Position numbers and translations under genes: made by a program. From a bacterium (GTDB taxonomy: Bacteria > Hinthialibacterota > Hinthialibacteria > Hinthialibacterales > Hinthialibacteraceae): DNA of 64,000 bases. Positions 14,194 through 51,905 of this stretch are shown piece by piece; within the stretch, counting starts at the first letter, position 1; every line of letters starts with the position of its first letter. The notes under the pieces were generated by a model, which did not search any database, was not told where the DNA came from, and was given only the letters and a program-made list of their open reading frames with translations. The stretch is taken from assembly GCA_963662285.2 (NCBI GenBank), contig CAXXMV010000008.1, positions 480,001 to 544,000 of the forward strand, written 5' to 3'.

Positions 14194-14430
14194 ACACCAT
14201 ACCTCCTTCATTCAGGGATTACAAGAAAGGGCGCCAAAAAGTATATAAATAAAATCAGGCAGAACATTCATCATAGTTTCACAAAACTTCTATGACATTA
14301 CATTTGATTGAAATTCAATAACAATGCATACTTCATATAAAGCATTCGGAGAGGTTCTCCATATTCTGCTATTCAGTTCGACCTATATAATATAGGTTGC
14401 TAAACAAGAGAATTCAAAAGGAGTTTTTAC

Positions 14431-18991: not shown

Positions 18992-20836
18992 TTAATAGAG
19001 TTCCCATACGCTAACTGCAGTATTAACCTCAAGATCAGACAGCATATCAACCCCAGCGTTAATCCCGACCGGCCGGATCACGGCGTACCTGACCCTGCTG
19101 ATATGAATCGCGCCTAATTCAGAGAACGAGAAGCGAACAGCTGCTTGAGGACCTTGGTTGACTCCACTGAAATTGACGTCATTAACAATCCATACCGCCG
19201 TCTTCCATTCATCTGTTCCGGTAATGACTTGCCTGACTTCTTCCGGGACAAACTTGAACTGTAGAGTTCCAAATACATTGGATTGATACACTTGCGGTCC
19301 AAAATCTTCATCAATCAAAGCCGGATCATCATAATAATCCACTGCGATTTTCAAAACTGCGTTAGGTTGATCGGATGGTCCAAAATGTTCATTAATAATT
19401 GAGAAATTTATATGACTGTCAAACGGATCGCTGCCATCGCCTAAAGCTGGACGGATCGCGGAACGTTTATCACCCGCTGGACCAATATCATCTTCAACTA
19501 AATATTCCTGGTCGCCGCCGCTGGTTCCATAATCCAAACCAAAGTTTAAAGCAGGATCATCAATATTGAATTCCGCATAAATTTCGTATGGATCAGGATC
19601 AAATGGATAAGCATCGGGAATAGGATCGACATTCTCGTAGACTCCAGAACTGCGAACCATACCCACTCTTACGCGTGAGACATATACCGGACCGCCAAAA
19701 CTAAAACGGGCCGCTCCTTGAGGAGTAACATTTACGCCCTTTAATTTGACATCAGGAACATACCAAACAGCTTCGCGCCATAAACCGGTTCCTGCAAGAA
19801 CAGTTCGTTTTGCCTCCGAGAAGAAAGCCAAAGCATCGCCAGCTGTAACATAGACTTCCGGTCCAAAAATAGTTCCGGCAAGCGCAGGATCATCATAATA
19901 CTCAGCAACAATCTTTACTTTCGAACTAGGTTGGCTGGTTGGTCCAAAATGTTCATCTAAAATCGCCCAGTTAACATAAATATCTTGCGTAGCATCAGAA
20001 CCATCATCAAAAGCCGGTCGTACAGCCTGGCGTTTATCGTCTGCAGGACCAATATCGCTGGACTCAATGGTTTCCTGGTCTCCACCAGTAACGCGATGTA
20101 GATCCAAGCCATTGATCACGCCATTATTGATATCCCATTCGGCCATAATGGCATAATCATCCGGATTAAACTCGACTACTTTAGTCGTATTAATATCTTC
20201 CGGTTCGCCGAATGCGCCTTCAGGACCAATAGCAATAGCGCGAATTATCAAGCCATTAGTTCCTCCTAAACGTATGGTGCCTCCATTTACTCCGCCGTAT
20301 GTGATAGTTCCTTGAGAATCGTCGTGCACGTTTCCAGCCCAGGCGCCGGAATTATCAACCCGGAAGAGACGCCATTCAAATTGGTCAGTCACAGATTCAA
20401 AATTGAATCCATCAACGTAATTCATATAATCGCCAGGCAGCGTACCCAGCAGGAAACCCATATTGTCACGCTTGGATTCAGCATTGGCGAAATACTGCAC
20501 CAGAACATCAATCACAGGCAAGTCAGGTAATAAAAAATAAAGTTCATCAGCAATATTGAAATAGTTGGCAACCGACTTTTTAGCGTCTTTACCGGCGATT
20601 GAAATGTCTTCCGTTACCTGATCGCCACCAGTCAGGATAAGAATCGTTTCAGAAAATAGATTCCCTTGACCTGAAGGAATAGCTCCATAAAGAGCATCAT
20701 CCGCGCACCAATAATGCACATCCGCATCGAAATCAGTAGTTGGCGGCCACTGATCGATATCTTGTGAATATGCTGGCGTATAACCAATTAGTAATCCAAC
20801 AACCATGAAACAGACAAAAATTTTATTCATATTCAA
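18992..20836 (-). CDS. Secreted acidic protein with three internal beta-rich repeats and C-terminal WELY tag
   Basis: Signal peptide; three GGDQ-starting repeats, the last two with EHFGP/YYDDP/W.A.W; ends TAVSVWELY; AGGAGG RBS. Confidence 0.75.
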   Translation of the reverse strand: MNMNKIFVCFMVVGLLIGYTPAYSQDIDQWPPTTDFDADVHYWCADDALYGAIPSGQGNLFSETILILTGGDQVTEDISIAGKDAKKSVANYFNIADELYFLLPDLPVIDVLVQYFANAESKRDNMGFLLGTLPGDYMNYVDGFNFESVTDQFEWRLFRVDNSGAWAGNVHDDSQGTITYGGVNGGTIRLGGTNGLIIRAIAIGPEGAFGEPEDINTTKVVEFNPDDYAIMAEWDINNGVINGLDLHRVTGGDQETIESSDIGPADDKRQAVRPAFDDGSDATQDIYVNWAILDEHFGPTSQPSSKVKIVAEYYDDPALAGTIFGPEVYVTAGDALAFFSEAKRTVLAGTGLWREAVWYVPDVKLKGVNVTPQGAARFSFGGPVYVSRVRVGMVRSSGVYENVDPIPDAYPFDPDPYEIYAEFNIDDPALNFGLDYGTSGGDQEYLVEDDIGPAGDKRSAIRPALGDGSDPFDSHINFSIINEHFGPSDQPNAVLKIAVDYYDDPALIDEDFGPQVYQSNVFGTLQFKFVPEEVRQVITGTDEWKTAVWIVNDVNFSGVNQGPQAAVRFSFSELGAIHISRVRYAVIRPVGINAGVDMLSDLEVNTAVSVWELY

Positions 20837-23368: not shown

Positions 23369-24751
23369 TTATAACGTCCAACCTTTGCGATACTTGGGTT
23401 TAACCCATTTGTTGGCTTCGTCGTTATTGGTGAAACGGGCGTTGGGAGCATCCCAATACAGTTTCTGATCCGGGAATTTCAAGCAGAGGTTGCCCATTAC
23501 TATCCATTCGCTGAAAGGACCGGAATATTCGAAGTTCGAACCGGCGGGAGCGCCGCCCTTGCAAGCGCGAAGCCAGTCGATTTTCTGTTTTTGGTCATCG
23601 CCGTTCCCTGGTAAGCGTGGGATAATTTGTTGAGGCGCTTTGAAATCCTTCATGTGTTCGCCAGCAATCAAACGTGAGCCTTCGCCATAGGTTCCCGTCA
23701 CCAGGATGCCCTTGTCGCCGATGAAGAGTGAACCGCAGGAGCCTTTATCGATTTTGAAATTCTTAACGCCTTCCGGTATAGGAGGATGCAGATTGCCGTC
23801 GTACCAATACAGCGTTACCGGTGACATGTTTCCACGGCGTGGGAATTCAAAGCGAATTCTGGCTTCAGTCGGGAAGGTTTGATCATTGTTGCCTTTTTCA
23901 TGCAGGCACTCAACGCTTATAGGAGCGCCCAGACGCAAGGCCATGTTGGCTGGATCAAGTATATGACAGGCCATATCCGCTAAAGCGCCGCCGCCAAAGT
24001 CCCACCATCCGCGCCATTTGAATGGAGCGTATGCTGAGTTATAAGGACGATATATAGATGGTCCAATCCATGCATCCCAATTAATATTATCTGGCGCTTC
24101 TTCTTCTGGAAGAATTCCAGGTTTGCCATCTTCAAAGATGCCTTCGATGCCCTGCGGCCAGATAGGACGGTCAGTCCAGGCGTGAACTTCGCGGATATCT
24201 CCGGCGATGCCCGACCAGACCAATTCGCACATATCGCGAACGCCATCGCCTGAGTGACCCTGGTTGCCCATTTGGGTGGCAACGCCGTATTTTCTGGCGG
24301 CCAAAGTCAATTTGCGGGCTTCCCAGATGGTACGGGTCAATGGTTTCTGTACGTAAACATTGATGCCGCGTTCCATACACGCCATTGCTGCCACAGCGTG
24401 AACGTGGTCAGGAGTAGAAATTGTGCAGGCATCAATATTCTTTTCCTTGTCCAGCATTTGGCGGAAATCCTGATAAACCTTGGCGCCCGGGAATTTCTTG
24501 ATCGAGCCATTGGCCATTCTCTCATCAGGATCGGCCAGGGCAATAACGTTTTCGCCCAGATCGCCGCATTGGCCGATGTCTGACGATCCCTTGCCGCCTG
24601 CTCCAATAGCAGCCATGTTCAATTTTTCGTTAGGAGATTTGTATCCCAGCCGTTTCAGGCTTGGAACTGATTTTGTGGTTGCGCAACCAGCCATTGTCGC
24701 CGCAGCGCTTCCCATTAAAAAAATACGCCGGGAAAGTTTTGATTCACTCAT
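23369..24751 (-). CDS. Tat-exported Gfo/Idh/MocA oxidoreductase (copy 1)
   Basis: SRRIFL signal with MAGC lipobox; IGAGGKG, STPDHVH, VQKPL, GALADMACHILD. Confidence 0.92.
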   Translation of the reverse strand: MSESKLSRRIFLMGSAAATMAGCATTKSVPSLKRLGYKSPNEKLNMAAIGAGGKGSSDIGQCGDLGENVIALADPDERMANGSIKKFPGAKVYQDFRQMLDKEKNIDACTISTPDHVHAVAAMACMERGINVYVQKPLTRTIWEARKLTLAARKYGVATQMGNQGHSGDGVRDMCELVWSGIAGDIREVHAWTDRPIWPQGIEGIFEDGKPGILPEEEAPDNINWDAWIGPSIYRPYNSAYAPFKWRGWWDFGGGALADMACHILDPANMALRLGAPISVECLHEKGNNDQTFPTEARIRFEFPRRGNMSPVTLYWYDGNLHPPIPEGVKNFKIDKGSCGSLFIGDKGILVTGTYGEGSRLIAGEHMKDFKAPQQIIPRLPGNGDDQKQKIDWLRACKGGAPAGSNFEYSGPFSEWIVMGNLCLKFPDQKLYWDAPNARFTNNDEANKWVKPKYRKGWTL

Positions 24752-25491: not shown

Positions 25492-26511
25492 TTATTTACA
25501 ATCCCCCCGCCATTCCAAACTTTGATCACGCATCAAACGCCAATCAAGTTCCGGCTCGCGACCGGCGGTGGTTAGATAGTTGCCCACCATCATACCGCTG
25601 GCCCCGGCGAAAAAAATCATACACTGTAAGTCATGCAAGTTTGATTCACGCCCGCCGCAAATTCTAATCGTCTTATCAGGAAGTATAAACCTAAAAAGTG
25701 AAATCGTCATCAAAATTTCCATCGGCGGCATAGGAGGTTGTTTTTCCAGAGGAGTTCCGGGGACTGAGTATAGAAAATTCATGGGAATCCCATCCACATC
25801 CAGTTCACGCAAAGTTAAAGCCAGGTCGATCCGGTCATTGATGGTCTCACCCAATCCGAAGATGCCCCCTGAGCATATTTTCATGCCAGCTTGATGAGAG
25901 GTTTTAATGGTTTTAATCCTCTCTTGAAAGGTATGGGTAGTGCAAATCGAAGGGAAAAAGCGTTCAGAGGTTTCAAGGTTATGATGTATGGTGGTAACGC
26001 CGCATTGACGTAAGTATCTTAATTGCTCAATATTTAATAAGCCAATTGAAGTATGAACGTCCAGCCCGGTCTTTTCTCTAATAATTATGGCAGCCTCACC
26101 AATTCGTTTCAACTCAGCTTCATTTTTCACGCCCGGGCCGCTGGTTACTAAGCCAAACGATTCAGCGCCATCTTGTTTAGCCTGTTGCGCCACTTTCAGC
26201 ATCTCGTCTATTTCCATCATAGAATAGACCGGCGCTCCAGTTTTATAACGCGATGATTGAGAGCAGAAAGCGCAATCCTCGCTGCATGCGCCCGATTTGG
26301 CGTTTACTATGGAACAAAGACTGACGTGGTTTTGATTATAATGTTCCCGGATACGGTTGGCATGATAAAACAGAAGCAAGGATTCTTTCGGATCAATCGC
26401 TCCAATTCGCTGCGCTTCGGAACGGTCGATTCGATATCCATGATTGATGATATTGTTTGATATATCTTCAAGAAATTTGCCAAGTGATTGATCTTCTTTA
26501 TTTTGATTCAT
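25492..26511 (-). CDS. bioB: Biotin synthase
   Basis: NAKSGACSEDCAFCSQS radical-SAM motif, HHNLETS, CSGGIFGLGE, IPMNFL, GNYLTT. Start moved to ATG 26511 because the upstream ORF extension is repeat DNA. Confidence 0.95.
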   Translation of the reverse strand: MNQNKEDQSLGKFLEDISNNIINHGYRIDRSEAQRIGAIDPKESLLLFYHANRIREHYNQNHVSLCSIVNAKSGACSEDCAFCSQSSRYKTGAPVYSMMEIDEMLKVAQQAKQDGAESFGLVTSGPGVKNEAELKRIGEAAIIIREKTGLDVHTSIGLLNIEQLRYLRQCGVTTIHHNLETSERFFPSICTTHTFQERIKTIKTSHQAGMKICSGGIFGLGETINDRIDLALTLRELDVDGIPMNFLYSVPGTPLEKQPPMPPMEILMTISLFRFILPDKTIRICGGRESNLHDLQCMIFFAGASGMMVGNYLTTAGREPELDWRLMRDQSLEWRGDCK

Positions 26512-26607
26512 GTTATTTCGACTTGTCCTTGTCGCCGATAGGGCTTTGCGTATTCCGGGCGCCCACGAGGGTAATGTCATTAAGTCAAGGAATTTCACCT
26601 TATCGTT

Positions 26608-26656
26608 GGTGGCTTGATCAAGGGCTGAGCGCAATGCGCTCTTGCCCTTGGCACCC
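26608..26656. repeat. Palindromic repeat family B
   Basis: ggtggcttgatcaagggc...gcccttggcaccc, reverse-complementary to 51956-51997. Confidence 0.7.
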
Positions 26657-26705
26657 AGCAATACAGATTATGCATTAATTATATGGATTTATGAACTTGC
26701 AAAAA

Positions 26706-27851
26706 TTATGGAAATATCTTAATAACAGGCTGCGTCAGGTTTCCTCCGCCATTATCCCATTTTATCAGACCGCTGGCGGCTTTATAGCCACTTAATTGAG
26801 TCAGGGATTTCGCCAAAGATGTGCGCTTTAATCCACTGGAACGAATAGACTTAATGATTAACTGCGCCGCATCATTGGCGTAAGTTGCAGAGAAAGTCGG
26901 GCGCTCAGCGAAGCGGCGTGAATATGAATGCTCAAACCGTAAATAAGGGCTGCATTTAGATGCATGTTCAAAAGGTTCAACCACATACAAAGTTCCAGAA
27001 TATTGGCTTGATATGACCTCAGCCTTAAATCCGGGAATCCAGGGAATGAAAAGCGGGCAATGCACCTTCCGCTTTACAAGCGAATCAATCAAACCAGCCA
27101 ATTGATTCGCTTGCAGACGAATCACCAGAGCATCCGGTTTGAACGAGTTTATACGTTCTATAATTTCATCAAATGATTGCAGATCAGCGTCAATAGTGAA
27201 ATGGAAAACTGGTGGAATATGTTTCTTATGCAAAGCCTCTTGTAATTCATCAGAAGAATATCTGCCGTCATGTTCGGTTGAAGATATCAAACCAATTCTT
27301 TGCAGTGTTTTGAGCTGCGCGATTTGACTAATCAACAGATCCGCTTGCACCCGGTCATCAGGAGGCAGACGAAATATCCAGGGCAGATTGATATGAGTTA
27401 ATGATGGATCAGAGGCAATAGGAGAAACCAACGGAACCCAAGCCTTGGTAACCACTTGCTGCGCGATATGGGTTGCATCTCCATTAATGGAGCCGATAAC
27501 CGCCCAGACGCGATCCTGGTAAACCAACTTGATCATCTCTTTTGAACCGGCGCCCCAGGGATCATCGGCCCAGCGTTGCACAACAGAAAAAGGTACGGAT
27601 TGATAACCACCCTCAGCATTGGCCTGTTCAATAGCCAGAGAAACTCCCTGTATTATGGCTCGCGCTACACCGCCGTCTTGCTGATATGGAGAGAATAGCC
27701 CGATTTTAATTGATTTAAGTTTTTCCACATCAGCAGTTTGGGTCTCCGGCCCGGAGAAAGGCTGGGGCGCGTCAAGCATACGATAAGGTTCTTGGGCGTT
27801 AATATTTATAGAGAGAAGAATGAAGATGGAAAAACAGATAATTGATCTCAT
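26706..27851 (-). CDS. LivJ-like (type I periplasmic-binding fold) substrate-binding protein
   Basis: Signal peptide MRSIICFSIFILLSININA; IKIGLFSP, GVSLAIEQANAEGG, WIFRLPPDD, ATYANDA; start 27851 because the upstream extension is repeat DNA. Confidence 0.85.
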   Translation of the reverse strand: MRSIICFSIFILLSININAQEPYRMLDAPQPFSGPETQTADVEKLKSIKIGLFSPYQQDGGVARAIIQGVSLAIEQANAEGGYQSVPFSVVQRWADDPWGAGSKEMIKLVYQDRVWAVIGSINGDATHIAQQVVTKAWVPLVSPIASDPSLTHINLPWIFRLPPDDRVQADLLISQIAQLKTLQRIGLISSTEHDGRYSSDELQEALHKKHIPPVFHFTIDADLQSFDEIIERINSFKPDALVIRLQANQLAGLIDSLVKRKVHCPLFIPWIPGFKAEVISSQYSGTLYVVEPFEHASKCSPYLRFEHSYSRRFAERPTFSATYANDAAQLIIKSIRSSGLKRTSLAKSLTQLSGYKAASGLIKWDNGGGNLTQPVIKIFP

Positions 27852-27868
27852 GTTATGGGCTATTATAT

Positions 27869-28192
27869 TGTCTGAATCTGGATACCCAGGATGGGTGGCA
27901 AGTGCAGTGTGTTGTCTGCCCTTGATCGAGTCACCTCTTATTTCAAGAATTCCCACTAACAATCCACACTGAAGACGGTATCATAGGATTGATTTCGTTT
28001 ATCCATGATTATCTAATCAAGGGCAGAAAGGACAACGTCCTTGGCGCCCACGCCTCACCGACCCATCAAAAAACCACCCATTCAATCAGAAAGCCACTCT
28101 CCGCTATGTCAGGGAAAATTCAATAGGGGGATTTTTCTTGCCAGGGTGGTTATTATCAACCCTCTCCTAGCCTCTCCCAATCTTGGGAGAGG
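27869..28192. repeat. Composite repeat cluster (families D, B inverted pair, A fragment, C)
   Basis: tgtctgaatctggatacccagg (27869); B arms 27893-27926 and 28016-28049; cgcctcaccgacccatc similar to 52030; tcaaccctctcc...gggagagg (28156-28192). Confidence 0.75.
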
Positions 28193-28208: not shown

Positions 28209-29600
28209 TTAATTCTTCGAGACCTTGGTTTTTTGCTCTCCGAAGATGTCTTGGTATGAGTAGAACTTAAACTCTCTATCTTCTGCTATAGCCAGGGAGG
28301 AAGGGCTGATGTTATTGAAAATCTGGTCGAACTCTTTTAGCCCGGTGACGCCATTATATTGAGTCACTTTGGCTAATTCATCGCGGATCAGGGCGCGGTT
28401 GAGTCCGGCGCGTTCGATAGCGTCAATAATCATGGTCATGCCATCATAGGCATGGGCGGCGTAGGTTTCGGGAGCATCGCCAAAACGGTCGCTGAATGAT
28501 TTGACGAAATCGGTATATTTGGAGTCGCGGCTTTCTGGATCATAGGGATATCCGGCGATGACATTGCCGATGTTCTCTCCGGCCATTTCAAAGAATTTAG
28601 GTGATACCATACGGTCGCTGCCCAGGAATAGTTGATTCATACCCATAGCCCGCATTTGCTTAAGTATTAGAGCGGATTCTTCGCAGTCGCCATAAGTTAT
28701 TACTGCTTCTGGTTTTAGCGCTTTGATACGCTCAAGTTGTGGAGTGTAATCTGTATCGCCTACTTTGTAATTAAGTTCAGTTAAGAATGGATGACCGGAA
28801 CGGGTGGCGGCGTCGCGGAACTCATCGATGCTCATGCGTCCATAACGGTTATTAGCCCGCAAGGCGGCGACGCGGGTATACCCCAGTTTTTTGAAGACGT
28901 AATCAGCCATGAAATAGCACATCTGACGGTCATCGGTGATGCATCTAAATACCCAGGGGATATTGGTTTCAATAAAAGTGGGATCAGTATCGCCGGTATT
29001 CATCATGGGAATTTCAGCCTTCAAAGCCACCCGGATAGCAATATGGCTGTTAGCGCCATCAATTGATCCGAGTATAGCCCAGACATTATCTTTATAGGCC
29101 AAGTGGACGATTTCACTGCCGCTGGCGCCCCAAAGGCCGTTGTCGTTGCGGACTTTCAATTCATAGGGAACGCCGCTTCCTCTGTAACCACCGTTTGCAT
29201 TGGCGTGTTCAATGGCAAGACGGGCGCCTTGCATCATTTTGTGGCCTAAGGGTTCTTCATGAGACGCCCCGCCAGTAGCGACCGAAACGGTTTTCATGAT
29301 GGGACCTAAAAAGCCGATTTTGATCGAATCGAGATTCTTTGGCTCAGGAATATGACGCCCGTATCCCCGGTATTGTAATGGTTCACGGAAAAAACGGCGG
29401 TATGGTTCGGTGAATTCACCATAGGGGAAATATTCATCAGGCGTACGGCCATAGTTTTTCTTTAATAATTCAGGATCAGCCTTTTGAACCTTGGTAGTTC
29501 CATGAATTCTCGAATCGTCTAAAACTGTATCATCGCTGGCGATAGCGCTGCTTCCCCCGAAGAGCGCCATGACTAAAAACATCCCGATTATCTTTTTCAT
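28209..29600 (-). CDS. LivJ-like substrate-binding protein with N-terminal extension
   Basis: Signal peptide; IKIGFLGP, GARLAIEHANANGG, WVFRCITDD, AAHAYDG, GVTG; paralog of 26706-27851. Confidence 0.88.
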   Translation of the reverse strand: MKKIIGMFLVMALFGGSSAIASDDTVLDDSRIHGTTKVQKADPELLKKNYGRTPDEYFPYGEFTEPYRRFFREPLQYRGYGRHIPEPKNLDSIKIGFLGPIMKTVSVATGGASHEEPLGHKMMQGARLAIEHANANGGYRGSGVPYELKVRNDNGLWGASGSEIVHLAYKDNVWAILGSIDGANSHIAIRVALKAEIPMMNTGDTDPTFIETNIPWVFRCITDDRQMCYFMADYVFKKLGYTRVAALRANNRYGRMSIDEFRDAATRSGHPFLTELNYKVGDTDYTPQLERIKALKPEAVITYGDCEESALILKQMRAMGMNQLFLGSDRMVSPKFFEMAGENIGNVIAGYPYDPESRDSKYTDFVKSFSDRFGDAPETYAAHAYDGMTMIIDAIERAGLNRALIRDELAKVTQYNGVTGLKEFDQIFNNISPSSLAIAEDREFKFYSYQDIFGEQKTKVSKN

Positions 29601-31015: not shown

Positions 31016-33871
31016 TTATAGCGTTTTTAAGTATTCAACTAAATCTTTGAGTTGATCTTTAGTCATATCATTGGTCACCCCATGCCGATCAAAGGGATTA
31101 TAACGGGTCCAGATTTCTTCCAGGGTTTCCGCACGCCCGTCATGCATATAAGGCGCCGTCTCATAAATATTATTCAAATGAGGAATATCAAATTCCAAAT
31201 CAGTATCCAATTCGGAAATCACGCCGATATTAACCACATCGCGGCTGGTGTAATAAGGCGCCGGGTGACAGGAGTTGCACCTGTTATCCAAGGGAATCTC
31301 TTTACCCGAATTATCCATAGTGCGTTCAAATATTATTTTGCCGCGCCGTTGGGCGGGCGTCATTTCACCGTCCAAACGAAAGCGATTGGGGTTGCGCGGA
31401 ATGGTGCATATATAGCGGTCTAAGGCTTTAACCTGTTCGGGAGTAAAAGGATCAATTCTAGTGAAGAACACAGCCAAACGGGGGCCGCACTGTCTGCTGA
31501 GAGAAGGATTCTTGCCGGTCCACTTAAATGGCGCGGTATCCAGGATGCCGCGCAGGGTTCGATTATCTACCGGATTGATGCCGATGCCGTCCGGTTCGAT
31601 ATCATAAGTTACGCCATCAACCCCGCCGTCGGGATGACAAGAGTGACAAGAGAACTGACGCCCGAATGTTACTTCCGCATTATGGAAAATACGCTCGCCC
31701 ATGCGTTCTTCAGTGATTTGCTGGGGGCCGCCCAGGTCGATGGTTTTTATACGCTCTTGTTTTGCGACGTCGATGACGGATATGGCATCATCCAAGGCAT
31801 CGGCGACGTAAACGTATTTACCATCAGGAGAAACGGTCAGGCCGCGCGGCCCGATGCCCACTGTTATACGCTTAAGGATAAACTCGGTTGATACGCCCAG
31901 ATGATTTGGTAGAAGGTTTTTGCGTTCTTCATCAGTCGCGTTTTTCAAGATGGATTTCATCTTATCAAGATCGATAACCGCAACCGCATCAATGCCGCCG
32001 CCGGTGACATAGGCGTATTTGCCGTCAGGCGTTATAACCACATCGGTGGGATCGGCGAATCCGTTATCCAGTTCATCCAGGGGCAGTTGATCGACGCGGC
32101 CGTCTTTCCAAAGAACGCCCAGAGTATTGGTCATAACCCATCCCTGGATAACGCGGGTCATGGGAACCAGGTTTTTGGTGCGCACCATAGTAACCAGAGC
32201 GAACTCACCATCTGGAGAACAATCGACGCCCTGCACCAGATTAGCCTCGGGAATTACGATGCGCGTATCTATGAAATCGCGTTTGGTTTCGATAACGGTA
32301 ACTTCGGAACGGCATGGTTCGCGGAATTTGACGAAATGAGAGAGGTTGTTGGTTACATAAACCGACTCACCATCCGATGAGCGCGAAACGCCCCAGGCGC
32401 CCCGTGCGGCGGAAAGCCGTTTGGCCTCTTGGCCTTTTTGGATATCAACGATTGACACGTCATCAGAACCAGCGTTGGCGACGTATAAGCGCGTACCCTC
32501 CAGGTTAGTGGTCATTTGGTGGGGTTCATCGCCAACCGGGATTGTTTTGATGATGGCAAAGGATTGAGAGTCAATCACCGACACAGTATCGGCGCCCCGG
32601 TTGCTGACAAAAACCTGTGATTGATCAGGCGACAGGCAGACTCCATGAGGCAGGTTTTCAACCTGAATTTCCGCAATGCGTTGGCCGCTGGCAGCTTCTA
32701 CAACAATTAGACTATCAGAGGCTTCGCAAGCAATATATAGCCGCTCCCCATCGCGGGACACGGCTATATTAAAAGGGGTTTTATATTCTATCCCCGCTGA
32801 AGCAGTCTTATCCTTCTTCTTGAAATGCTCAATTTTCTTTACAGCTTTTTCATAGTCGAATGGTTTGCCATCAACCTCTTTGGGATGGCAGCGCAGACAA
32901 GTTTCACGGTTCACTTTCCATAAACCTGATTCACGCGAGGCGATGGGATCAAGCATGACCGCTTCGAGCATATATTCACTGCCAGGACCATGACAACTCT
33001 CACATTGAACGCCTTGAGCAACATCGAAGGATTCAGTAAACCATCCCGCCTGCTCGCCATGTCCGGTGGAATGGCATTTCAAGCATTGTTCAGCTTGTTG
33101 GGGATTTCCCTCAATGCCTCTTTTCTTAGCGATTTCCTTGGCTTTTTGAGTCCCTAGCACAGCAAAGGCTTTGGAATGACTGGAGAGACGCCATTTACTG
33201 ACGGCGTAGCCCATCATCGCACCCCGGTGACACTCAGCGCATGACATGGCGCCGACATATTTAGGACCGTCAATTAATTTTTTGGGCTTTTTAGGTTCTT
33301 CAGGAATAGGACCGCCCTTGCCGCTGTGAGCAATCTCGCCCAGAGCCATCTTGTAATCGAATTTCTTGACTTTCAAAACCGCCAGATGCGAACCTTTATC
33401 TTTATGGCAGATCATACAATCCTGCTCGGTGGGCATCTTCAGACCAGCCATCATGGCGGCATTGGGATTTCGCATAACATCCAGTTCGGCGTACTCGCTG
33501 CCCGATCCATGACATAATTCGCATTGCACGCCATCCTGTATATGAAAGGTTTCATCCAGTTCCCAGTCTTCGACATTGGACGCAGTGGCATGGCAACCCA
33601 GGCAGACCGGACTATCAAATGGGTTGTCAGCAATACCCGATAGTTTGGCGATTTCTTGTGATTCCGGCATGGCTAAAACCGCATAGGCGTTGGCATGTTT
33701 GGTTAAACGCCACTTATTATACTGGTCGCGCTGACCTGCATTATGATGACAGGCGCGGCATTTCTGCTCGCCAATATAGACGCGATCCGCCGCCCATGAG
33801 TCCAGCGAAGCGCTGATAGATATCATGACTAAAAGCCCGGCAGCCAGAAGCCCCTTCTTGTATCCCAACAT
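31016..33871 (-). CDS. Secreted decaheme fusion: two cytochrome c554-like tetraheme domains + YVTN beta-propeller + CCP/MauG-type diheme domain (HzsB/C-like)
   Basis: Ten CxxCH: CRACH, CLGCH, CELCH, CMICH, CAECH, CLKCH, CESCH, CLRCH, CHSCH, CNSCH. Also YIG..C..CH/W..H/GVQCE.CHG.GS c554 pattern, YVAN/YVTN/YVTG/YVAD blades, TAPFKWTG and TAPYMHDG. Confidence 0.9.
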   Translation of the reverse strand: MLGYKKGLLAAGLLVMISISASLDSWAADRVYIGEQKCRACHHNAGQRDQYNKWRLTKHANAYAVLAMPESQEIAKLSGIADNPFDSPVCLGCHATASNVEDWELDETFHIQDGVQCELCHGSGSEYAELDVMRNPNAAMMAGLKMPTEQDCMICHKDKGSHLAVLKVKKFDYKMALGEIAHSGKGGPIPEEPKKPKKLIDGPKYVGAMSCAECHRGAMMGYAVSKWRLSSHSKAFAVLGTQKAKEIAKKRGIEGNPQQAEQCLKCHSTGHGEQAGWFTESFDVAQGVQCESCHGPGSEYMLEAVMLDPIASRESGLWKVNRETCLRCHPKEVDGKPFDYEKAVKKIEHFKKKDKTASAGIEYKTPFNIAVSRDGERLYIACEASDSLIVVEAASGQRIAEIQVENLPHGVCLSPDQSQVFVSNRGADTVSVIDSQSFAIIKTIPVGDEPHQMTTNLEGTRLYVANAGSDDVSIVDIQKGQEAKRLSAARGAWGVSRSSDGESVYVTNNLSHFVKFREPCRSEVTVIETKRDFIDTRIVIPEANLVQGVDCSPDGEFALVTMVRTKNLVPMTRVIQGWVMTNTLGVLWKDGRVDQLPLDELDNGFADPTDVVITPDGKYAYVTGGGIDAVAVIDLDKMKSILKNATDEERKNLLPNHLGVSTEFILKRITVGIGPRGLTVSPDGKYVYVADALDDAISVIDVAKQERIKTIDLGGPQQITEERMGERIFHNAEVTFGRQFSCHSCHPDGGVDGVTYDIEPDGIGINPVDNRTLRGILDTAPFKWTGKNPSLSRQCGPRLAVFFTRIDPFTPEQVKALDRYICTIPRNPNRFRLDGEMTPAQRRGKIIFERTMDNSGKEIPLDNRCNSCHPAPYYTSRDVVNIGVISELDTDLEFDIPHLNNIYETAPYMHDGRAETLEEIWTRYNPFDRHGVTNDMTKDQLKDLVEYLKTL

Positions 33872-37887: not shown

Positions 37888-39021
37888 TTATTTAGATAAT
37901 ATTGCCGTTGCATCCAGTTCGTATAACAGTTCGTCGCGACATACATCAGCCAAAGTGCAAACCACAGGTATCTTATCCAAACCCATGCGGCTGGCGATAG
38001 AGTAGTACATCTCAACATCCTGAGGCCGTTTTACAAACGAAGTAGCCTGACATATATCATCGAGTCCAGCGCCGCCTACTTCTAAAAGGGCTTGTACATT
38101 TTCCAGAGTTCGCACCGTTTGCCGTTCAAAATCCCCTTCAAAAACGCTTACGCCCTTTTCATCAATAGCCGCAGTACCTGAAACAAATATATATTGACAA
38201 GAGTCAGTCTCCACCGATAAAGCGCGGGCGAAGGCTGAACCATATTCCGGCGCCTCGTTCTGCTTTGGGTTAATCAACCGCTTCGCTTCAAAGGTCTGAC
38301 CATCAATAGGCTTCATAGCCAACAGATCAAGAGTGCACCAACCGCCATCAGCATTTCGCCCCTGGATGCCAGTGCTGGCGGGAATGGAACTGAGGGGATT
38401 GCCATTAAACAGCCCCATTCGCTTGAAAGCATCATTACGGACTAGATTAAACTCATCATACCAGTCCAGAATATTATGCAGATAAAACCAGGTACGCCGG
38501 ACATCATTAAATTTCCATTTTTGTTTATCTAAAATATGCTCGATTAATTCAAAGGTTCTGCTGGTCTCTTCGCCAGGTGATTGCCCCCCGGTTTCACGCA
38601 CCAGGCGTCCGACATCAGACAGAGTCAAATAACGGGCGTCATTACCTGTAACAATGCGGCCGCAAGCCTCGCCTTGCCATTCCAGCAGAGTGGATTCCGG
38701 TTGGTTTTTACCTTGCAAAGCTACAGCATGAATCCCGGCTACGCCTGAACCGCTGAACGGCGTACCTTCAACAAAAGTCGGCGGGATATCTGATTTAACG
38801 CCTTTCTCATCAAAAATCCGTTTACGCTCTTGCAGGATAGTATAAGATGATTTGCTTTCACCATATATACGTTCATGCAACAATATAGTTTGCTGATATT
38901 GAAGATAATCCGCTATTTTTCCAAAGCCTTGAGCAACAATATCGTCTATCGAATGATCAGTCGAGTCAGGAATCCAGGAAAGAAAAATCAGATCGCCTGG
39001 ACCATCAGTTGAAAAGAACAT
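37888..39021 (-). CDS. Rid/YjgF-superfamily multi-domain protein (FkbO/Hyg5 chorismatase-like architecture)
   Basis: VRRTWFYL..I...Y..FN..R, PASTGI, NPKQ.EA.EYG..F.RA, IFVSGTAAID, ADVCRDELLYELDA; AAGGAG RBS before ATG 39021. Confidence 0.8.
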   Translation of the reverse strand: MFFSTDGPGDLIFLSWIPDSTDHSIDDIVAQGFGKIADYLQYQQTILLHERIYGESKSSYTILQERKRIFDEKGVKSDIPPTFVEGTPFSGSGVAGIHAVALQGKNQPESTLLEWQGEACGRIVTGNDARYLTLSDVGRLVRETGGQSPGEETSRTFELIEHILDKQKWKFNDVRRTWFYLHNILDWYDEFNLVRNDAFKRMGLFNGNPLSSIPASTGIQGRNADGGWCTLDLLAMKPIDGQTFEAKRLINPKQNEAPEYGSAFARALSVETDSCQYIFVSGTAAIDEKGVSVFEGDFERQTVRTLENVQALLEVGGAGLDDICQATSFVKRPQDVEMYYSIASRMGLDKIPVVCTLADVCRDELLYELDATAILSK

Positions 39022-39381
39022 AAAATACCCCACTCCTTAAATTCAAATAATTCAACCGATTACTGCCCAGTAACACCGGTTGAATCCTCCCAAAAAGTAC
39101 AAATAGCGATAGCGATCTTCGCATAACGCCGAACCAAATCAACTTATTTTATCGAATATCTTCAGCAGCTTCAAGAGAAGGGGGAACTAATCATAGTTAA
39201 GTGCATAATCGAAACAATGAAAGTATGCCTTTGGGTGATAGCGTAAAGGATGTCATAACAGGTAATTCGGGTAATTAACCGTTAATATAGCAATTTTTCC
39301 TTGAGATACACTTCAGATTACAGAAGTACCCTCTAGAATAGCCCTTGGATCACCTAATGAAGAATAAAAGGTTTGATAATC

Positions 39382-41359: not shown

Positions 41360-43852
41360 TTATCGGAACAATTCCCAATTTTCATAGGATGATGCAGGTA
41401 GATTATCCGAATATGTCAGTATTTCTTTACCTGTATAATAACCAAAGAGATACTCAGCATAGAATTTCCACTCCACTTCATCATCATCCGAAGATACCTG
41501 ATAAAAAGCAAAATTGCCATATTCACGGTCGCCATTTTCAGTCATCAATAGACTCGATAATAGACCGACTGTTTCCTCGGTTACGTTAAATAATGCTTCA
41601 ACCGACTGTTCTGCATCAGGAGCGGACGGCCAACCCATGTCTTCCATCATCAAGACATACATCCATAAGCATTCATAGGCTGCAACATCAAAGGCCCGCG
41701 GCTCATTATCAATGTGCGTAGCGATATCGTTGATAACAACACAGGGTGGAAGGCTTAAATGGTGCGTCTGGTCCACTCCAATTATGGAGGCGGTAAACCG
41801 TAGTTGACTGGCAATCTCCGCAGATTCCGGGTTTTCTAAAATACCGTTATTGAGCGCAGTGGAATCAGTCCCAAACCAGCGGAACTTATTCAAAGAAGAG
41901 TTATCGGGAATAGCAGAGAAAATGTCTGCTATTTCATCATAAGCAATAACAACAATAGCTGTTTTCATGATATTCTGGTTCTGGATGTTATTCTTGAGTT
42001 GATCTACAACGGGGGAGAAATCCGTCGTTCCGATATCATACGAGATGCTTTCGCCAAATTGTCCGCCTAGTTCTTCAAACGCCGTTTTCAAGTTGGAATA
42101 TAAACCTGATCCATAAGTATCATTGCGGTATAGCGCATTGATCTTTGAGTATCCCTGATCTTTAATCAACGCCGCAATCGCTGTGACCTGTTTGTAGTCG
42201 TTCATTACCAGGCGGAAAATGTTATCCTTTTTTGATAGCGTAGTGGCAGTACTGGAAGGAGAAAGAAGCATTATTCCATTTTCCTCAACAAAAGGAGCAA
42301 CTTTTTCCAAAGCGGAACTGGTTACAGGGCCAATGAAATAACGAATGCCCTGGGCGTACATTTCCTGCATCTTTTGCAAGGCCGTATCAGGATCAGTCGC
42401 AGTATCTTCAACCACCAGTTCAACGCTTGAACCGGGCGTATGAACGCGCTTAAAAATTTCGTTAACATGAAGGCTAGCCAATTCCAATGATTTATTGATC
42501 AATTGTCCACCTTCCGCATAATCACCGGATAGAGGCATCAAAGCGCCAATTTTAAGGTATTTATCCAGATTGTCTGGAATATATATCTCGCTGGAGAATT
42601 TCTCACGAACAATGTTGCCGCCAAATAGATAGCAAGAATAGGAACCGGCCGGGGTCCATTTTTGATCTTCTAAATATTGATAAAATCCATATATGGCATT
42701 TATAGAGTCGCCATTTTGATCGAAAAATGGATAACCTTTAAATCCCATAAAAATTGTGGATATTCGAATCAGTTCATTTTTCAAATCATAAGTTCCCTCG
42801 AACTGAGAAATCCCAGCCATCCAGAGTGCATCATAAGAAGCGGATTCGAGAGAAGTCATTTGATAATTAGTTTTTGATATGATCTTGGAATATAAGAGTT
42901 CATCGGTTAATGAATAATGAAAGAAGGGGTAAAACCGCGCGTCAGATGTAGACATTGAGGCCGTAAATTCGACCTGCGCGGCAAAAGCAGAAGCGATGTC
43001 ATCTTGACTAATGATTTCATTCCTGGCAGTTCCATCAGCTCCAAACCAACGAACAGCTTTGAGAATATCTTGGCTGGAAGCGGCTTTAAGTATTTCTGCT
43101 ACCTCATCAAATGAAACAACAACGATTCCTACCTTGGCTTCAGCATTTTCCTGTTGAATAGTATCAACTACATTTGTAAGTTGAGCAATCAAAGTTTGAT
43201 AATCAGTAGTTTGCACATCATAAAAAATCGGTTCTGATAGAGTACCTATTTCTGCGTAACTTGATTGAAACGCAGCGGCGAAGTCCTGACCATAATTATC
43301 ATTTCGCGAAATAAGGACGATATGATCGACATCTTCGGACTGAATAAACTTGGCTAAAGCAACTGACTGCAGGCTATCGTTTGTGCAAAGCCTGAAAATG
43401 TTATCATCCAGCGCCAGAGAGAGCGCCGTGCTGGTTGGTGATATCAAAACGCAGTTATTCTCATCCGCAAACGGTTTGACGCGCAACAGCGCTTCACTCG
43501 AAAAAGGACCTACAAATATTCGGAATCCTGCCTGATATAAAGATTGCAATTTGGTTAATGCAGTTTCCGGGTCTGTACCAGTATCTTCAATTACCAAATT
43601 AATGTGAACCTTTGGATACTCACGCTCAAAGTCTTCCAGTGCAACTTCCAATGTGGCTTTTGCAGCATTCCCTAAATTAACGAGAGAACCTGTTAATGGT
43701 ACTAAAGCGCCGATTGATAGCGTTGTTTCTCCTGGTGGAGCGGGAAAAACGACTTGAGAATTACTCGCGCCCGGTAATCCGATTAAAACGGTAAGCAGAA
43801 TCGGTAAAAAAAGCATACCCATTCTATTGTTCCATCTGCTGCATAAATTCAT
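41360..43852 (-). CDS. Secreted protein with two tandem LivJ-like binding domains and C-terminal WELFR tag
   Basis: Signal peptide; duplicated IGAL.PL.G...EDT.TDP.TAL...GP..S...SP.ST...IFRL..ND...RND.YG...RWFG.D; ends SSYENWELFR. Confidence 0.85.
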   Translation of the reverse strand: MNLCSRWNNRMGMLFLPILLTVLIGLPGASNSQVVFPAPPGETTLSIGALVPLTGSLVNLGNAAKATLEVALEDFEREYPKVHINLVIEDTGTDPETALTKLQSLYQAGFRIFVGPFSSEALLRVKPFADENNCVLISPTSTALSLALDDNIFRLCTNDSLQSVALAKFIQSEDVDHIVLISRNDNYGQDFAAAFQSSYAEIGTLSEPIFYDVQTTDYQTLIAQLTNVVDTIQQENAEAKVGIVVVSFDEVAEILKAASSQDILKAVRWFGADGTARNEIISQDDIASAFAAQVEFTASMSTSDARFYPFFHYSLTDELLYSKIISKTNYQMTSLESASYDALWMAGISQFEGTYDLKNELIRISTIFMGFKGYPFFDQNGDSINAIYGFYQYLEDQKWTPAGSYSCYLFGGNIVREKFSSEIYIPDNLDKYLKIGALMPLSGDYAEGGQLINKSLELASLHVNEIFKRVHTPGSSVELVVEDTATDPDTALQKMQEMYAQGIRYFIGPVTSSALEKVAPFVEENGIMLLSPSSTATTLSKKDNIFRLVMNDYKQVTAIAALIKDQGYSKINALYRNDTYGSGLYSNLKTAFEELGGQFGESISYDIGTTDFSPVVDQLKNNIQNQNIMKTAIVVIAYDEIADIFSAIPDNSSLNKFRWFGTDSTALNNGILENPESAEIASQLRFTASIIGVDQTHHLSLPPCVVINDIATHIDNEPRAFDVAAYECLWMYVLMMEDMGWPSAPDAEQSVEALFNVTEETVGLLSSLLMTENGDREYGNFAFYQVSSDDDEVEWKFYAEYLFGYYTGKEILTYSDNLPASSYENWELFR

Positions 43853-48089: not shown

Positions 48090-48432
48090 TGTTTTGGTTC
48101 TCCCTTAGTTTCTATAAATTCCATTACATTGGCCTATTCAATCATATCACAATTGACTCGGAAAAGTTGAGTTCTAATGCCTTCAAATGCAAAATAGATA
48201 CGGCTTGTTAGAATAACCTAATTTATAAAAAATCTGTATCAGGTAAAAAAGGATACCTATCTCATCAAGACCTTGTTGTGCTTATTGATTTCTTTTAATA
48301 TAAATGGATCATTACGGTTCTATCCCAATCGTGTACGGATTAACACATTCTTATTAATAGGTGTTCAATTCGTATAAGCAGGTATATGAAAAAATCTCCT
48401 GCAAAAAAACATCTTCCAAAAAGGGGAGCATT

Positions 48433-49815
48433 ATGAGTGAATCAAAACTTTCCCGGCGTATTTTTTTAATGGGAAGCGCTGCGGCGACGATGGCCGGTTG
48501 CGCAACTACCAGTTCCATTCCGAGCCTGAAACGGTTGGGATACAAATCTCCTAACGAAAAATTGAATATGGCTGCTATCGGAGCAGGCGGCAAGGGCACG
48601 TCAGATATTGGCCAATGCGGCGATTTGGGCGAAAACGTTATTGCGCTAGCCGATCCAGATGCGAAAACAGCTAATACTTCGATCCAGAGATTCACTGGCG
48701 CTACTGTTTATCAGGATTTCCGCCAAATGCTGGACAAGGAAAAGAATATTGATGCCTGCACAATTTCTACTCCTGACCACGTTCACGCTGTGGCAGCCAT
48801 GGCATGTATGGAACGCGGCATCAATGTTTATGTACAGAAACCATTGACCCGTACCATCTGGGAAGCCCGCAAATTGACTCTGGCCGCCAGAAAATACGGC
48901 GTCGCCACTCAAATGGGCAACCAGGGACACTCCGGCGACGGCGTTCGCGATATGTGCGAATTGGTCTGGTCGGGCATTGCTGGCGATATCACTGAAGTTC
49001 ACGCCTGGACTAACCGTCCAGTATGGCCTCAGGGCATCGAGGGCGTCTTTGCTGATGGTAAACCTGGACTGCTTCCTGAAGAAGATATTCCAGATAATAT
49101 TGATTGGGATGCATGGATTGGACCTGCGAAATATCGTCCTTACAACTCAAAATACGCTCCATTCAACTGGCGTGGATGGTGGGACTTCGGCGGCGGCGCA
49201 CTAGCAGACATGGCCTGCCATATTCTCGATCCAGCCAACATGGCCTTATGTCTCGGCGCTCCAACAAGCGTTGAGTGTCTCTATGAAAAAGACAACAACG
49301 ACCAGACCTTCCCCAATGAAGCCAGAATTCGCTTTGAGTTCCCACGTCGTGGAAGCATGCCAGCTCTAAAACTATATTGGTACGACGGCAACCTGCATCC
49401 TCCGATACCTGAAGGCGTTAAAGACTTCAAAATCAGTGATGGCTCCAGTGGTTCAATCTTCATCGGCAGCAAAGGCGTTCTGGCGACAGGAACCTATGGC
49501 GGCGGCTCACGCTTGATTGCCGGCGAAAACATGAAAGATTTCCAAAAACCACAACAAATCCTCCCACGCTTACCAGGGAAGGAAGACGACTACAAACAGA
49601 AAATCGACTGGCTGCGCGCATGCAAGGGCGGCGCTCCCGCAGGCTCGAACTTTGAATATTCCGGCCCCTTCAGCGAATGGATTGTAATGGGCAACCTGTG
49701 CTTGAAATTCCCCGGCCAGAAACTGCTGTGGGATGCTCCCAACGCACGCTTCACTAATAACAGTGCAGCCAACAAATGGGTTAAACCAGATTACCGCAAA
49801 GGTTGGACATTGTAA
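48433..49815 (+). CDS. Tat-exported Gfo/Idh/MocA oxidoreductase (copy 2)
   Basis: Same length (460 aa) as 23369-24751, with 55 substitutions by manual count; start ATG 48433 after GGGGAG. Confidence 0.92.
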   Translation: MSESKLSRRIFLMGSAAATMAGCATTSSIPSLKRLGYKSPNEKLNMAAIGAGGKGTSDIGQCGDLGENVIALADPDAKTANTSIQRFTGATVYQDFRQMLDKEKNIDACTISTPDHVHAVAAMACMERGINVYVQKPLTRTIWEARKLTLAARKYGVATQMGNQGHSGDGVRDMCELVWSGIAGDITEVHAWTNRPVWPQGIEGVFADGKPGLLPEEDIPDNIDWDAWIGPAKYRPYNSKYAPFNWRGWWDFGGGALADMACHILDPANMALCLGAPTSVECLYEKDNNDQTFPNEARIRFEFPRRGSMPALKLYWYDGNLHPPIPEGVKDFKISDGSSGSIFIGSKGVLATGTYGGGSRLIAGENMKDFQKPQQILPRLPGKEDDYKQKIDWLRACKGGAPAGSNFEYSGPFSEWIVMGNLCLKFPGQKLLWDAPNARFTNNSAANKWVKPDYRKGWTL

Positions 49816-49980: not shown

Positions 49981-50137
49981 TTTTATAACCAGTTCCCCGT
50001 TCTTTAAGAAAAAGCGTTTTATGCATTGAAAAAGGCGCTTTTCTTTTCTATCATAACTTTTCAAGAAAAAAACTTGATAAAGGTTGCTTTCTGATTCATG
50101 AACTGTTTGTAAAAATAAGCATAAGAAGATTTTTAAT

Positions 50138-51876
50138 ATGTTTCCTAAACGTGATTTAATTATTTTTTTTTTATTTCTTGCTTTTTATTATCTATAAGGT
50201 TTCTTCTTGTTCAGCCGGAAAAATTTCTCTGGGATATTTATTACACTCGAATGGCGCTAAATCCCTATTGGGGAGAGGGAGCGCCATGGGGTAGCAGAAT
50301 CTTAACTTCCTATCTTGTTTATTTATGTCCCATTAGCACCTCTCTTGCTTTCTATATTGTAAATCTTATATCCTTGCTTTTATCTACTATTGTATTAATG
50401 CTTCTTTGCAAAGATCTGGGGATGCGCAACGGATTACCGATTGCCGCAGCCGCATCATACTTATTTTCTTCCGGTGTGGAATGGCAAATTAAAGAGATAT
50501 GGTTTAATGATGCAATAAGTCATTTATTTTTAGTATTAATGATTTACTCTATGCTTAAAAAATATGATGCATGGGTGTGTCTTTTTTCTTTATTAGGAGC
50601 CTTAAATAGAACAACGGCGCTATATTTTCTCCCTGTTTGGTATATATACCGTTTTGGTTGGTCAATACACTTAAGAAATATTCGCTATCTTATCTTTGTT
50701 TGGAGTCCACCAGTTATCATAACAATATTGATACATGCTTTATGGTTTCCTCTTACTAGTTATTCATGTATCAAGAATATTGGCGGATTTGTGAGTAATT
50801 ACAATTTCTTTGAGTTTTATTTTGAGGATTTTTTTCTACATACTTCTTCATTCAACGATTTTGTAGATAGAATTTTCTCTCTTAATTTGGCCAATAACTT
50901 TTTTGGTATTTTGTTGCCACTGTTTTTAGTGGCAGTTTTTCGCCTTAAAAATCATTATAAAATCCTATCAATTTGGATAGTGATTGTATGGCTACAATTT
51001 TTTGTAGCTAGAGATGTCGGACGTTTGGAAACATATGCTTTCCCTGCAATGATCCCAATCTCGCTTCTTTATGTCGCTCAATCAATACAATCTGCAACCT
51101 ACCAAAAAATTACAGCGCTAGTGATAATTGTGCTTTCGATTTTTTTACCGATATCTTGTTTTTTCATAATGGGCTGCATAATATCTGCGTTTGTGTTCTA
51201 CATTGGAGAAAATAGGATTAACATATTAACTGTTTCTCTTGATATAGAAAAAGAACAAATAACCTCAAACCAGAACAATTATTTTTTGATACATATTCCA
51301 TGTATTTTGATGTTTCTGACTTTTGTTTGGTTTGGCGCTTTTTGTATGGAGACATACACATTGCGTCCAAGACCAATTTTTGGTTATCCACAATCATTGA
51401 TTAACCAGCAAAATAAAAGCATGACTCTTGGAGTTGCTGATTCAAAAGGAAATTTAAGGAGCATTCATAATTACTCCAACAAAAACACAAATGATTTATC
51501 GATGATTACTATCAGTGAATCTTATGAACAAATAATTATTCCTTTGGAGGATATGGAAAAAACAGATGCTAAACTTACTTTTCTACTAAAAATGTGGGGA
51601 ACAATTGAATTGGGGAACAGATTATATGTTGATCTAGGATTTGTGGATGGAAAAGAATTGATTCCCACCTTCAACCAATTCTCACAAATTTCTTCTAATT
51701 ATAGTATTAATCATTTCTCACAGTTATTCTTTCTTTATCGCTTAAAGAACGAGAATTGCTTAATAATCGGTCGCGATAACACTTGGAAAGGGAGATTTCA
51801 ATTTATGCTCTTTGATGTCACCCATATAACAAGAAAAACAAAAGAGTCTCCTATAAAAATCAAGGTAACGTTTTAG
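50138..51876 (+). CDS. AT-rich polytopic membrane protein, GT-C glycosyltransferase-like; 5' end frameshifted at a T10 tract
   Basis: Main ORF 50251-51876 has about 12 TM helices; its frame is open upstream to 50155 and contains LWDIYYTRMA. ATG 50138 joins this frame if T10 (50163-50172) is T11. Confidence 0.6.
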
Positions 51877-51905
51877 TCTTCTGAAAAAATAAATTACACT
51901 GAGCC

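Follow-up and report, generated by a model that had tools for sequence, protein, structure and literature searches.

A decaheme fusion protein homologous to hydrazine synthase beta and gamma, encoded in a conserved six-gene cassette of exported proteins

Results

Architecture of the decaheme protein

The stretch of DNA analysed here (the window) comprises 64,000 nucleotides from a bacterium of the Hinthialibacteraceae (positions 480,001 to 544,000 of contig CAXXMV010000008.1, assembly GCA_963662285.2). It encodes a decaheme protein that is a fusion of two cytochrome c554-type tetraheme modules with homologues of hydrazine synthase (HZS) subunits beta and gamma, and that lies in a cassette with an HZS-alpha-like gene (Table 1). 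The protein was identified as a c554-c554-beta-gamma fusion because HZS beta and gamma were its best matches and because a homologue of HZS alpha is encoded two genes upstream.

Table 1. Coordinates of the decaheme gene, its domains and the neighbouring genes within the window.
Feature	Coordinates	Strand	Remarks
Decaheme fusion, 951 aa	31016..33871	-	leader, c554, c554, HZS-beta-like propeller, HZS-gamma-like diheme
Tetraheme c554-type module 1	33317..33790	-	extra ligand candidates H59, H162, H182, M133
Tetraheme c554-type module 2	32813..33271	-	ligand candidates H232, H349, M306
YVTN propeller, HZS beta homologue including insertion region	31733..32788	-	sequence and fold match
HZS-gamma-like diheme domain	31019..31732	-	CCP/MauG fold
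HZS-alpha-like protein, 655 aa	35893..37860	-	Pfam HZS_alpha; two genes upstream of decaheme gene
FG-GAP / ASPIC-UnbV protein, 547 aa	33888..35531	-	16 bp upstream of decaheme gene
Second propeller (Reg_prop repeat), 373 aa	29877..30998	-	17 bp downstream of decaheme gene
Peripla_BP_6 binding protein 1	28209..29600	-	strongly conserved
Peripla_BP_6 binding protein 2	26706..27962	-	weakly conserved
Chorismatase-like protein (Hyg5/FkbO fold)	37888..39033	-	without leader, accessory; 27 bp upstream of alpha-like gene

The decaheme protein begins with a hydrophobic leader, as judged by eye. CxxCH motifs start at residues 38, 90, 117 and 152 in module 1 (nt 33760-33404), at residues 211, 263, 290 and 325 in module 2 (nt 33241-32885), and at residues 742 and 865 in the C-terminal diheme domain (nt 31648 and 31279). 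Among 38 open reading frames (ORFs) of the window that were screened, one of them read in the wrong frame, heme motifs occurred only in this protein and its alpha-like neighbour, so the ten-motif pattern is not due to chance. The two tetraheme blocks are homologous to each other, with 58 of 151 positions identical in a pairwise alignment (38%, E 6e-36), and the Pfam family Cytochrome_C554 matched both, giving two stretches in all. In module 1 the additional ligand candidates H59 and H162 were present in 65/65 aligned sequences, H182 in 61/65 and M133 in 59/65; in module 2, H232 was present in 65/65, H349 in 64/65 and M306 in 55/65.

The propeller (about residues 362-713) was recognized by the YVTN repeat family TIGR02276, which matched four stretches of the protein, and was confirmed by the structure model and by a fold search. 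The predicted full-length model had a pLDDT of 82.3 and a pTM of 0.79, with residues 751-804, the first heme pocket, mostly below 50. When the diheme domain was modelled alone, confidence over this pocket was restored (84.9). Full-length fold searches were dominated by propellers; the diheme domain was searched on its own. A first-pass annotation, made from the letters of the sequence, had described two homologous tetraheme blocks with eight CxxCH motifs, a YVTN propeller, and two CxxCH motifs in a CCP/MauG-like domain. The blocks are borne out by the motif positions, the 38% identity and the Pfam match, the propeller by TIGR02276, the model and the fold search, and the last domain by its fold matches; the coordinates given were off by no more than a few tens of bases.

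Homology to hydrazine synthase

By sequence, the best matches of the decaheme protein among solved structures were 5c2v_B (HZS beta, E 2.7e-43) and 5c2v_C (HZS gamma, E 2.5e-18). In the fold searches the propeller matched HZS beta with a Z of 47.3 (rmsd 1.8, 339 residues aligned; the next match had a Z of 40.0), and the diheme domain had HZS gamma (5c2v_C) on top, with a Z of 22.9 (rmsd 2.0, 228 residues aligned). Lower on the diheme list stood the MbnH-type 6e1c (Z 16.8), YhjA (16.7), bCCP (16.6), MauG (15.6) and BthA (14.6). An Atlas fold search with the gamma domain of one homologue (P0002) returned generic CCP/MauG clusters only. The first-pass annotation had named HZS gamma as an analogy: the relation to HZS holds, and it goes beyond analogy, as the propeller and diheme domain together are a beta-gamma homologue.

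None of the NCBIfam cut-offs for HZS was reached: the scores were 230.6 bits against 1250 for the beta-gamma family, 193.9 against 560 for beta, 71.2 against 625 for gamma, and 164.2 against 800 for alpha. The system is HZS-like in layout, yet by its profile scores and by the absence of Asp168, His144 and alpha Tyr591 it is not HZS.

Residues of the diheme domain

Conservation of residues was judged on 76 proteins, taken from the best 80 of the 424 genome stretches described below, minus four that were split or partial. HZS residues were numbered by applying a fixed offset to the alignment. By alignment, heme 1 has C742, C745 and H746 together with a third cysteine, C795, and its pocket contains W784, Q794 and R798; heme 2 has C865, C868 and H869 together with H930. 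The residues W784, Q794, C795, R798, L799, H869 and H930 were invariant (76/76). C795 aligned with Cys165 of HZS gamma and H930 with the gamma histidine counted as 332; the third cysteine on heme gamma-I and the bis-His heme gamma-II of HZS are retained, as seen by alignment only. The second heme should be His/His, because H930 aligns with the histidine ligand of HZS gamma. M909 was not conserved (5 of the top 120 proteins), the invariant distal candidate being His930.

Two other residues of the HZS gamma site are replaced. W784 stands in place of gamma His144, which lies between the hemes in HZS. Asp168, which sits 4.08 Å from the iron in HZS (bioRxiv 10.1101/2023.01.22.525020), has no acidic equivalent: R798 took its position in two alignments and L799 in a third, and both residues occurred in 76/76 proteins. 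Pocket arginines were R771, R793 and R798 (76/76) and R805 (75/76).

In MauG the comparable residues are Trp93, Gln103, Pro107 and Glu113, and conservation of the Pro and Glu in bCCP, MauG and BthA alike has been described (PMC6405878). W784 and Q794 matched Trp93 and Gln103 by spacing, and Q794 also by alignment to bCCP. R798 (+14) and T804 (+20) stand, by spacing only, where MauG has Pro107 and Glu113, with D807 nearby, which could serve. The bis-Fe(IV) state needs a Tyr ligand, and Y463H BthA cannot form it (PMC6405878); this Tyr of the six-coordinate heme is missing from the window protein, which has H930 instead. The MauG profile scored 22.5 bits against an NCBIfam cut-off of 443.85, and the MbnH profile 30.5 against 362.85. 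With a second heme predicted to be His/His, membership of MauG fails.

The six-gene cassette

A cassette of six genes for exported proteins was near-invariant in the 80 genome loci, which come from many phyla. Hydrophobic leaders were seen by eye on all six core proteins. Counts per gene, taken over those loci that were long enough to judge or had a match, were 68/69 for the alpha-like gene, 73/75 for the FG-GAP gene, 78/79 for the second propeller, 68/70 for binding protein 1 (median identity 60%, 93 near-invariant columns) and 59/62 for binding protein 2 (median identity 40%, 20 near-invariant columns).

For the alpha-like protein, 5c2v_A was the only match (E 6e-40; profile E 4.5e-97). Its heme motif CIGCHEDRE has Glu495 four residues after the His, at the spacing of HZS Tyr591, and this Glu was invariant in 53/53 rows. 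No Tyr follows the motif, and so the Tyr591 ligand of HZS is missing; Hägglund et al. align the Tyr591 region with a two-residue gap instead (PMC12758564). The second heme motif has the form CX4CH (CSGTDCH, residues 537-543), which is common among the relatives too, and 6/53 rows had one heme motif only. M620 occupies the position of HZS His772. In the second propeller, the loop pattern DPDxEMEIDLYRDDG (residues ~213-227) was found in 67/67 rows, its Tyr in 65/67, and the propeller has many invariant Trp. This acidic loop could be a metal site, a donor of a heme ligand or a docking loop.

No permease, ATPase or membrane electron donor was conserved within 10 kb of the cassette in the 80 loci, and a role for the binding proteins in an ABC importer was rejected because of the missing permease and ATPase. 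A bioB gene (25492-26661, - strand) follows the cassette by 44 bp in the window; it is probably lineage-specific, and it was rejected as a cassette member after being found in 4/57 loci. Cytochrome c554 serves as an electron acceptor in its known setting, with hydroxylamine oxidoreductase (HAO). The first-pass annotation had named this role of c554, for which we found no support here: the hao, hdh, amo and mau families had no match among the 41 window proteins scanned, and the CycA profile scored 68.9 bits against a cut-off of 400. A promoter scan was uninformative (34 sites versus 29.2 ± 5.8 in shuffles).

Several variations on the cassette were seen in some loci. Long open frames suggest possible fusions, of both binding proteins in L011 (3520-6003) and L040 (12912-15431), and of the second propeller with a binding protein in L076 (6888-9464). 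In L029 a gene above the NCBIfam cut-off for the anti-phage family DS2_3 (12466-14226) interrupts the cassette directly after the beta-gamma gene. L027 has a sigma-54 response regulator ahead of its cassette, and the cluster of this regulator was found in three loci (upstream in L026 and L027). A carbon-nitrogen hydrolase lies near the cassette in four loci (L072, 15325-16383, and relatives). Proteins with c554 and TPR domains and extra FG-GAP/ASPIC genes are often near it (L017, L024, L026, L042, L049).

Spread and phylogeny

When residues 360-951 of the decaheme protein were used as query in a homologue search, 4344 of the 8000 scored candidates matched. Apart from the window protein itself, the top 119 were 66-76% identical; of these 120 proteins together, 79 had ten heme motifs and 31 had six. 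Of 463 matched stretches from GTDB genomes, 424 encode a relative. The record titles of carriers include Ca. Omnitrophota, Acidobacteriota, Aminicenantes, Calditrichia, Fidelibacterota, Gemmatimonadota, Verrucomicrobiota, Planctomycetota and Rhodothermales, and Sedimentisphaerales are also among the hosts. Among the named relatives, those nearest to the window protein carry the label Ca. Omnitrophica/Omnitrophota. Distant representatives (29-48% identical) mostly had no c554 modules, and their third cysteine was variable; this set consisted of the 37 of 150 listed representatives that reach into the diheme domain when aligned, the remainder being repeat proteins or fragments. On plasmids only distant matches were found, with 4 of 37 records covering at least 80% at 24-28% identity. 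A tree of 77 sequences was built with FastTree and midpoint-rooted without an outgroup.

The chorismatase-like gene

The gene upstream of the alpha-like gene encodes a Rid-fold protein whose family profile matched 5ag3 (Hyg5-type, 1.2e-21) and 5a3k (1.3e-19), followed by FkbO 4bps (3e-16) and then RidA (2.2e-14). Its E372, R270, R199 and Y192 aligned with FkbO residues 338, 228, 162 and 155, and its G286 and C365 with Hyg5 residues 240 and 327. In chorismatases the aligned Tyr and the two Arg are substrate residues, and the Gly/Cys pair is that of Hyg5. The catalytic residue of Hyg5, Glu334 (PMC7170507), is also kept. The score for TIGR04444 was 46.7 bits for the window protein and 31.9-60.7 in five relatives, against a cut-off of 325.

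A profile search of the cassette loci found Rid/chorismatase-like genes in 32/80, of which 23 were long and 9 were short, single-domain forms. The functions of Rid4-Rid7 are described as unknown (PMC4433059). The long (three-domain) form fell almost wholly in one branch of the tree (support 1.0), which includes the window, while L073 and three short forms fell in the other main branch; this distribution suggests a few independent placements of the gene rather than 32. In seven loci a gene for DAHP synthase adjoins the cassette and shares its strand; an eighth, partial one lies on the opposite strand. All three DAHP synthases tested exceeded the NCBIfam cut-off. In L040 the Rid-DAHP pair lies downstream of the cassette instead of upstream, and hence the pair has stayed with the cassette after a rearrangement. 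Searches of a mostly open literature turned up no report that connects HZS homologues with chorismate; figures and supplements of PMC12758564 and PMC11828985 may show such neighbours.

Discussion

Relation to published homologues and known systems

The window protein adds to a kind of protein that was first set out in December 2025, and its architecture is not itself new. Under the name of clade I HZS homologues this architecture appears in Hägglund et al. 2025 (PMC12758564), who give it no function in the text. They report the gene order alpha, FG-GAP, fused beta-gamma, followed downstream by two genes for binding proteins; a beta-gamma protein whose two c554 domains hold eight extra hemes; a retained third cysteine with Trp for His144; and an alpha protein without Tyr591, Cys303 and His772. 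Their examples include Syntrophobacter fumaroxidans, Aquisphaera giovannonii and Paludibaculum fermentans, and cultured carriers are named. The window locus agrees in its fused beta-gamma protein, whose two N-terminal c554 domains carry eight hemes, in its gene order with two downstream binding-protein genes, and in its third cysteine, Trp at His144 and alpha protein with two heme sites lacking Tyr591 and His772; there is no difference in kind. The text of PMC12758564 makes no mention of the loss of Asp168, of chorismatase or DAHP synthase neighbours or of a second propeller gene, all of which its figures could show. A search for the architecture, proposed in the first-pass annotation, thus leads to a description in print, and no characterized function was found in the literature.

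It is a matter of dispute whether hzs-like genes found outside Brocadiia are a sign of anammox. Such clusters were read as possible anammox in PMC11828985 and PMC10732223; this reading could not be confirmed in PMC11266412, and PMC12758564 concludes that the clade I homologues are not anammox. The residues found here side against anammox. The family is large enough to confuse surveys of nitrogen-loss markers, because 4344 of the 8000 candidates matched and 424 genome stretches encode a relative.

Anammox HZS (PDB 5C2V; beta and gamma are fused in Ca. Scalindua) is the best match for the propeller, the diheme domain and the alpha-like neighbour, and by alignment shares the triple-Cys heme and the bis-His second heme. 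The window protein differs from it in having its own eight-heme module, Trp for His144 and no acid at Asp168, the alpha-like protein in having Glu at the spacing of Tyr591, and the cassette in its reversed gene order and four extra genes. MauG, MbnH and BthA resemble the diheme domain in fold (Z 14.6-16.8), in the inter-heme Trp as in MauG and in a distal Gln at +10; the window protein differs in its predicted His/His rather than Tyr/His ligation, in lacking Pro and Glu at the MauG spacing, and in its fused propeller and multiheme modules. The fold, Trp and Gln are also common to bCCPs, including the triheme YhjA, which offers a precedent for fusion of a donor heme. The electron-transfer heme of bCCPs is Met/His, while the window protein would have a His/His second heme; it also has a third cysteine, no distal Glu by spacing, and near-obligate partner genes. 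Module 2 matched residues 5-98 of Nitrosomonas cytochrome c554 (CycA, 1bvb; E 4.7e-9), but this match is partial and the window modules are fused and duplicated. The Hyg5/FkbO chorismatases are the best solved matches of the upstream gene, which keeps their catalytic Glu, the Tyr and Arg residues and the Gly/Cys pair of Hyg5, but lies far below the TIGR04444 cut-off and takes a single-domain form in some loci.

Proposed function and alternatives

Homology to HZS beta and gamma, the alpha-like partner gene and the conserved six-gene cassette are established by sequence and fold. For the function we tentatively propose, at a little under an even chance, that the decaheme protein of this non-anammox bacterium is the beta-gamma fusion subunit in a clade I HZS-like periplasmic complex, with its own electron wire, working reductively on an organic co-substrate; the substrate and the direction of electron flow are what we infer. 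The c554-type hemes would hand electrons to the bis-His heme (H869/H930), from which they would cross W784 to the open-site heme fixed by three cysteines. The triple-Cys heme would reductively activate a small ligand with an N-O or O-O bond (NO, nitrite or peroxide), and the reactive product would travel through the propeller to the alpha-like heme, as proposed for HZS. There it would act on an organic co-substrate rather than on ammonia; the most plausible candidate is an aromatic acid derived from chorismate and held by the binding proteins, which have no permease. The Rid/chorismatase-like genes in 32/80 loci, on both main branches of the tree, the adjoining DAHP synthase genes and the absence of a conserved permease or ATPase speak for this part of the proposal. 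The eight extra hemes with conserved distal-ligand candidates and the predicted His/His second heme suit electron transfer. The idea in the first-pass annotation of an electron store for a multi-electron reaction fits the same conserved His/Met candidates and second heme, and would extend to a wire.

Several observations weigh against this proposal. The c554 modules are dispensable, as 8/76 proteins from the loci had six motifs and most distant relatives had two or three. The pocket is without the acid of HZS (Asp168) by alignment and that of CCP/MauG (Glu113) by spacing, which weakens the mechanism for cleavage of an N-O or O-O bond, and no membrane electron donor lies within the cassette. 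The link to chorismate is loosened by the score for TIGR04444, which is so far below the cut-off that the upstream protein is chorismatase-like and not a filed member of the family. The gene is missing upstream in 29/59 judged loci, and as the long form is mostly in one branch, much of its count reflects shared inheritance. The chorismatase-like protein has no leader while the cassette proteins have leaders, which leaves a transport step unexplained.

Since sequence cannot fix the direction of electron flow, the complex could instead be a periplasmic dehydrogenase or oxidase, its substrate being oxidized at the alpha or gamma heme and its electrons drained by the c554 modules, as those of HAO are by c554. 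The known role of c554 as an acceptor and an Arg-rich, apparently acid-free pocket that suits an anionic substrate speak for this alternative, which we consider doubtful, as no conserved acceptor complex was found in the neighbourhood of the 80 loci and a reductive role has been proposed for HZS gamma, the closest solved relative, whose active heme lies at ~0 mV, above the low-spin hemes (bioRxiv 10.1101/2023.01.22.525020). A diheme peroxidase or reductase that detoxifies peroxide or NO through fused donor hemes, with the other genes accessory, is unlikely. It would account for the inter-heme W784 with Q794 ten residues on, the bCCP/MauG spacing (76/76), and bCCPs are next among the fold matches (Z 16.6-16.7); but Pro at +14 and Glu at +20 are absent (R798 and T804 stand there), the second heme is predicted to be His/His, a third cysteine is present, and the near-obligate alpha-like, FG-GAP, propeller and binding-protein partners are left unexplained. 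Quite unlikely, too, is a periplasmic nitrogen-transfer enzyme in which NO or nitrite would be reduced to hydroxylamine at the gamma-like heme, using electrons from the fused c554 wire, and the alpha-like heme would transfer the nitrogen to a chorismate-derived hydroxybenzoate brought by the binding proteins. In that case the cassette would represent the chemistry on organic substrates out of which anammox HZS was recruited, spread across many uncultured phyla.

The first-pass annotation had also suggested a MauG-type modification, in which a MauG/MbnH-like maturase would use the diheme to oxidize Trp or Tyr in a partner propeller and form a protein-derived cofactor. W784 and Q794 are retained, and an adjacent propeller with a near-invariant Met/Tyr loop and many invariant Trp is present in 78/79 loci. 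We nevertheless rate this as very unlikely, given that His930 replaces Tyr at the six-coordinate heme, a change with which BthA (Y463H) cannot form bis-Fe(IV) (PMC6405878), that the MauG and MbnH cut-offs are missed, and that the fold is nearer HZS gamma; with eight hemes attached, a high-valent oxidant would presumably be quenched. Least probable is a true but divergent HZS with anammox-like chemistry outside Brocadiia. All three subunit types do occur in one cassette, the third cysteine and the bis-His heme are kept, and such a role was proposed for hzs-like clusters in PMC11828985 and PMC10732223. Against it, neither the gamma residues Asp168 and His144 nor the alpha residues Tyr591 and His772 are kept, the beta-gamma and alpha scores fall far short of the HZS cut-offs (230.6/1250 and 164.2/800 bits), no hao or hdh family match was found in the window proteins scanned, the hosts include Sedimentisphaerales, which are described as strictly fermentative (PMC11266412), and the reading was rejected by Hägglund et al. 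(PMC12758564).

The family is among the nearest known relatives of HZS, and its real reaction therefore bears on the origin of hydrazine synthesis. The link to chorismatase and DAHP synthase, the invariant propeller loop and the invariant Glu of the alpha-like protein are concrete, testable leads.

Other features of the window

A third Peripla_BP_6 protein, a tandem double form of 830 aa (41360-43852, - strand), lies upstream of the conserved cassette and outside it. It ends in a short C-terminal W-x-L-F/Y tail similar to those of the products of 18992-20836 (-) and 55031-55975 (-), possibly a shared sorting signal, and two of these three proteins had no Pfam match. Two Gfo/Idh/MocA oxidoreductase paralogues (23369-24751, - strand, and 48361-49815, + strand) are near-identical at their N- and C-terminal ends. 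The GC content falls to 0.33 at about 50001-52000, compared with about 0.45 elsewhere, over a region that covers a 541-aa ORF without a Pfam match.

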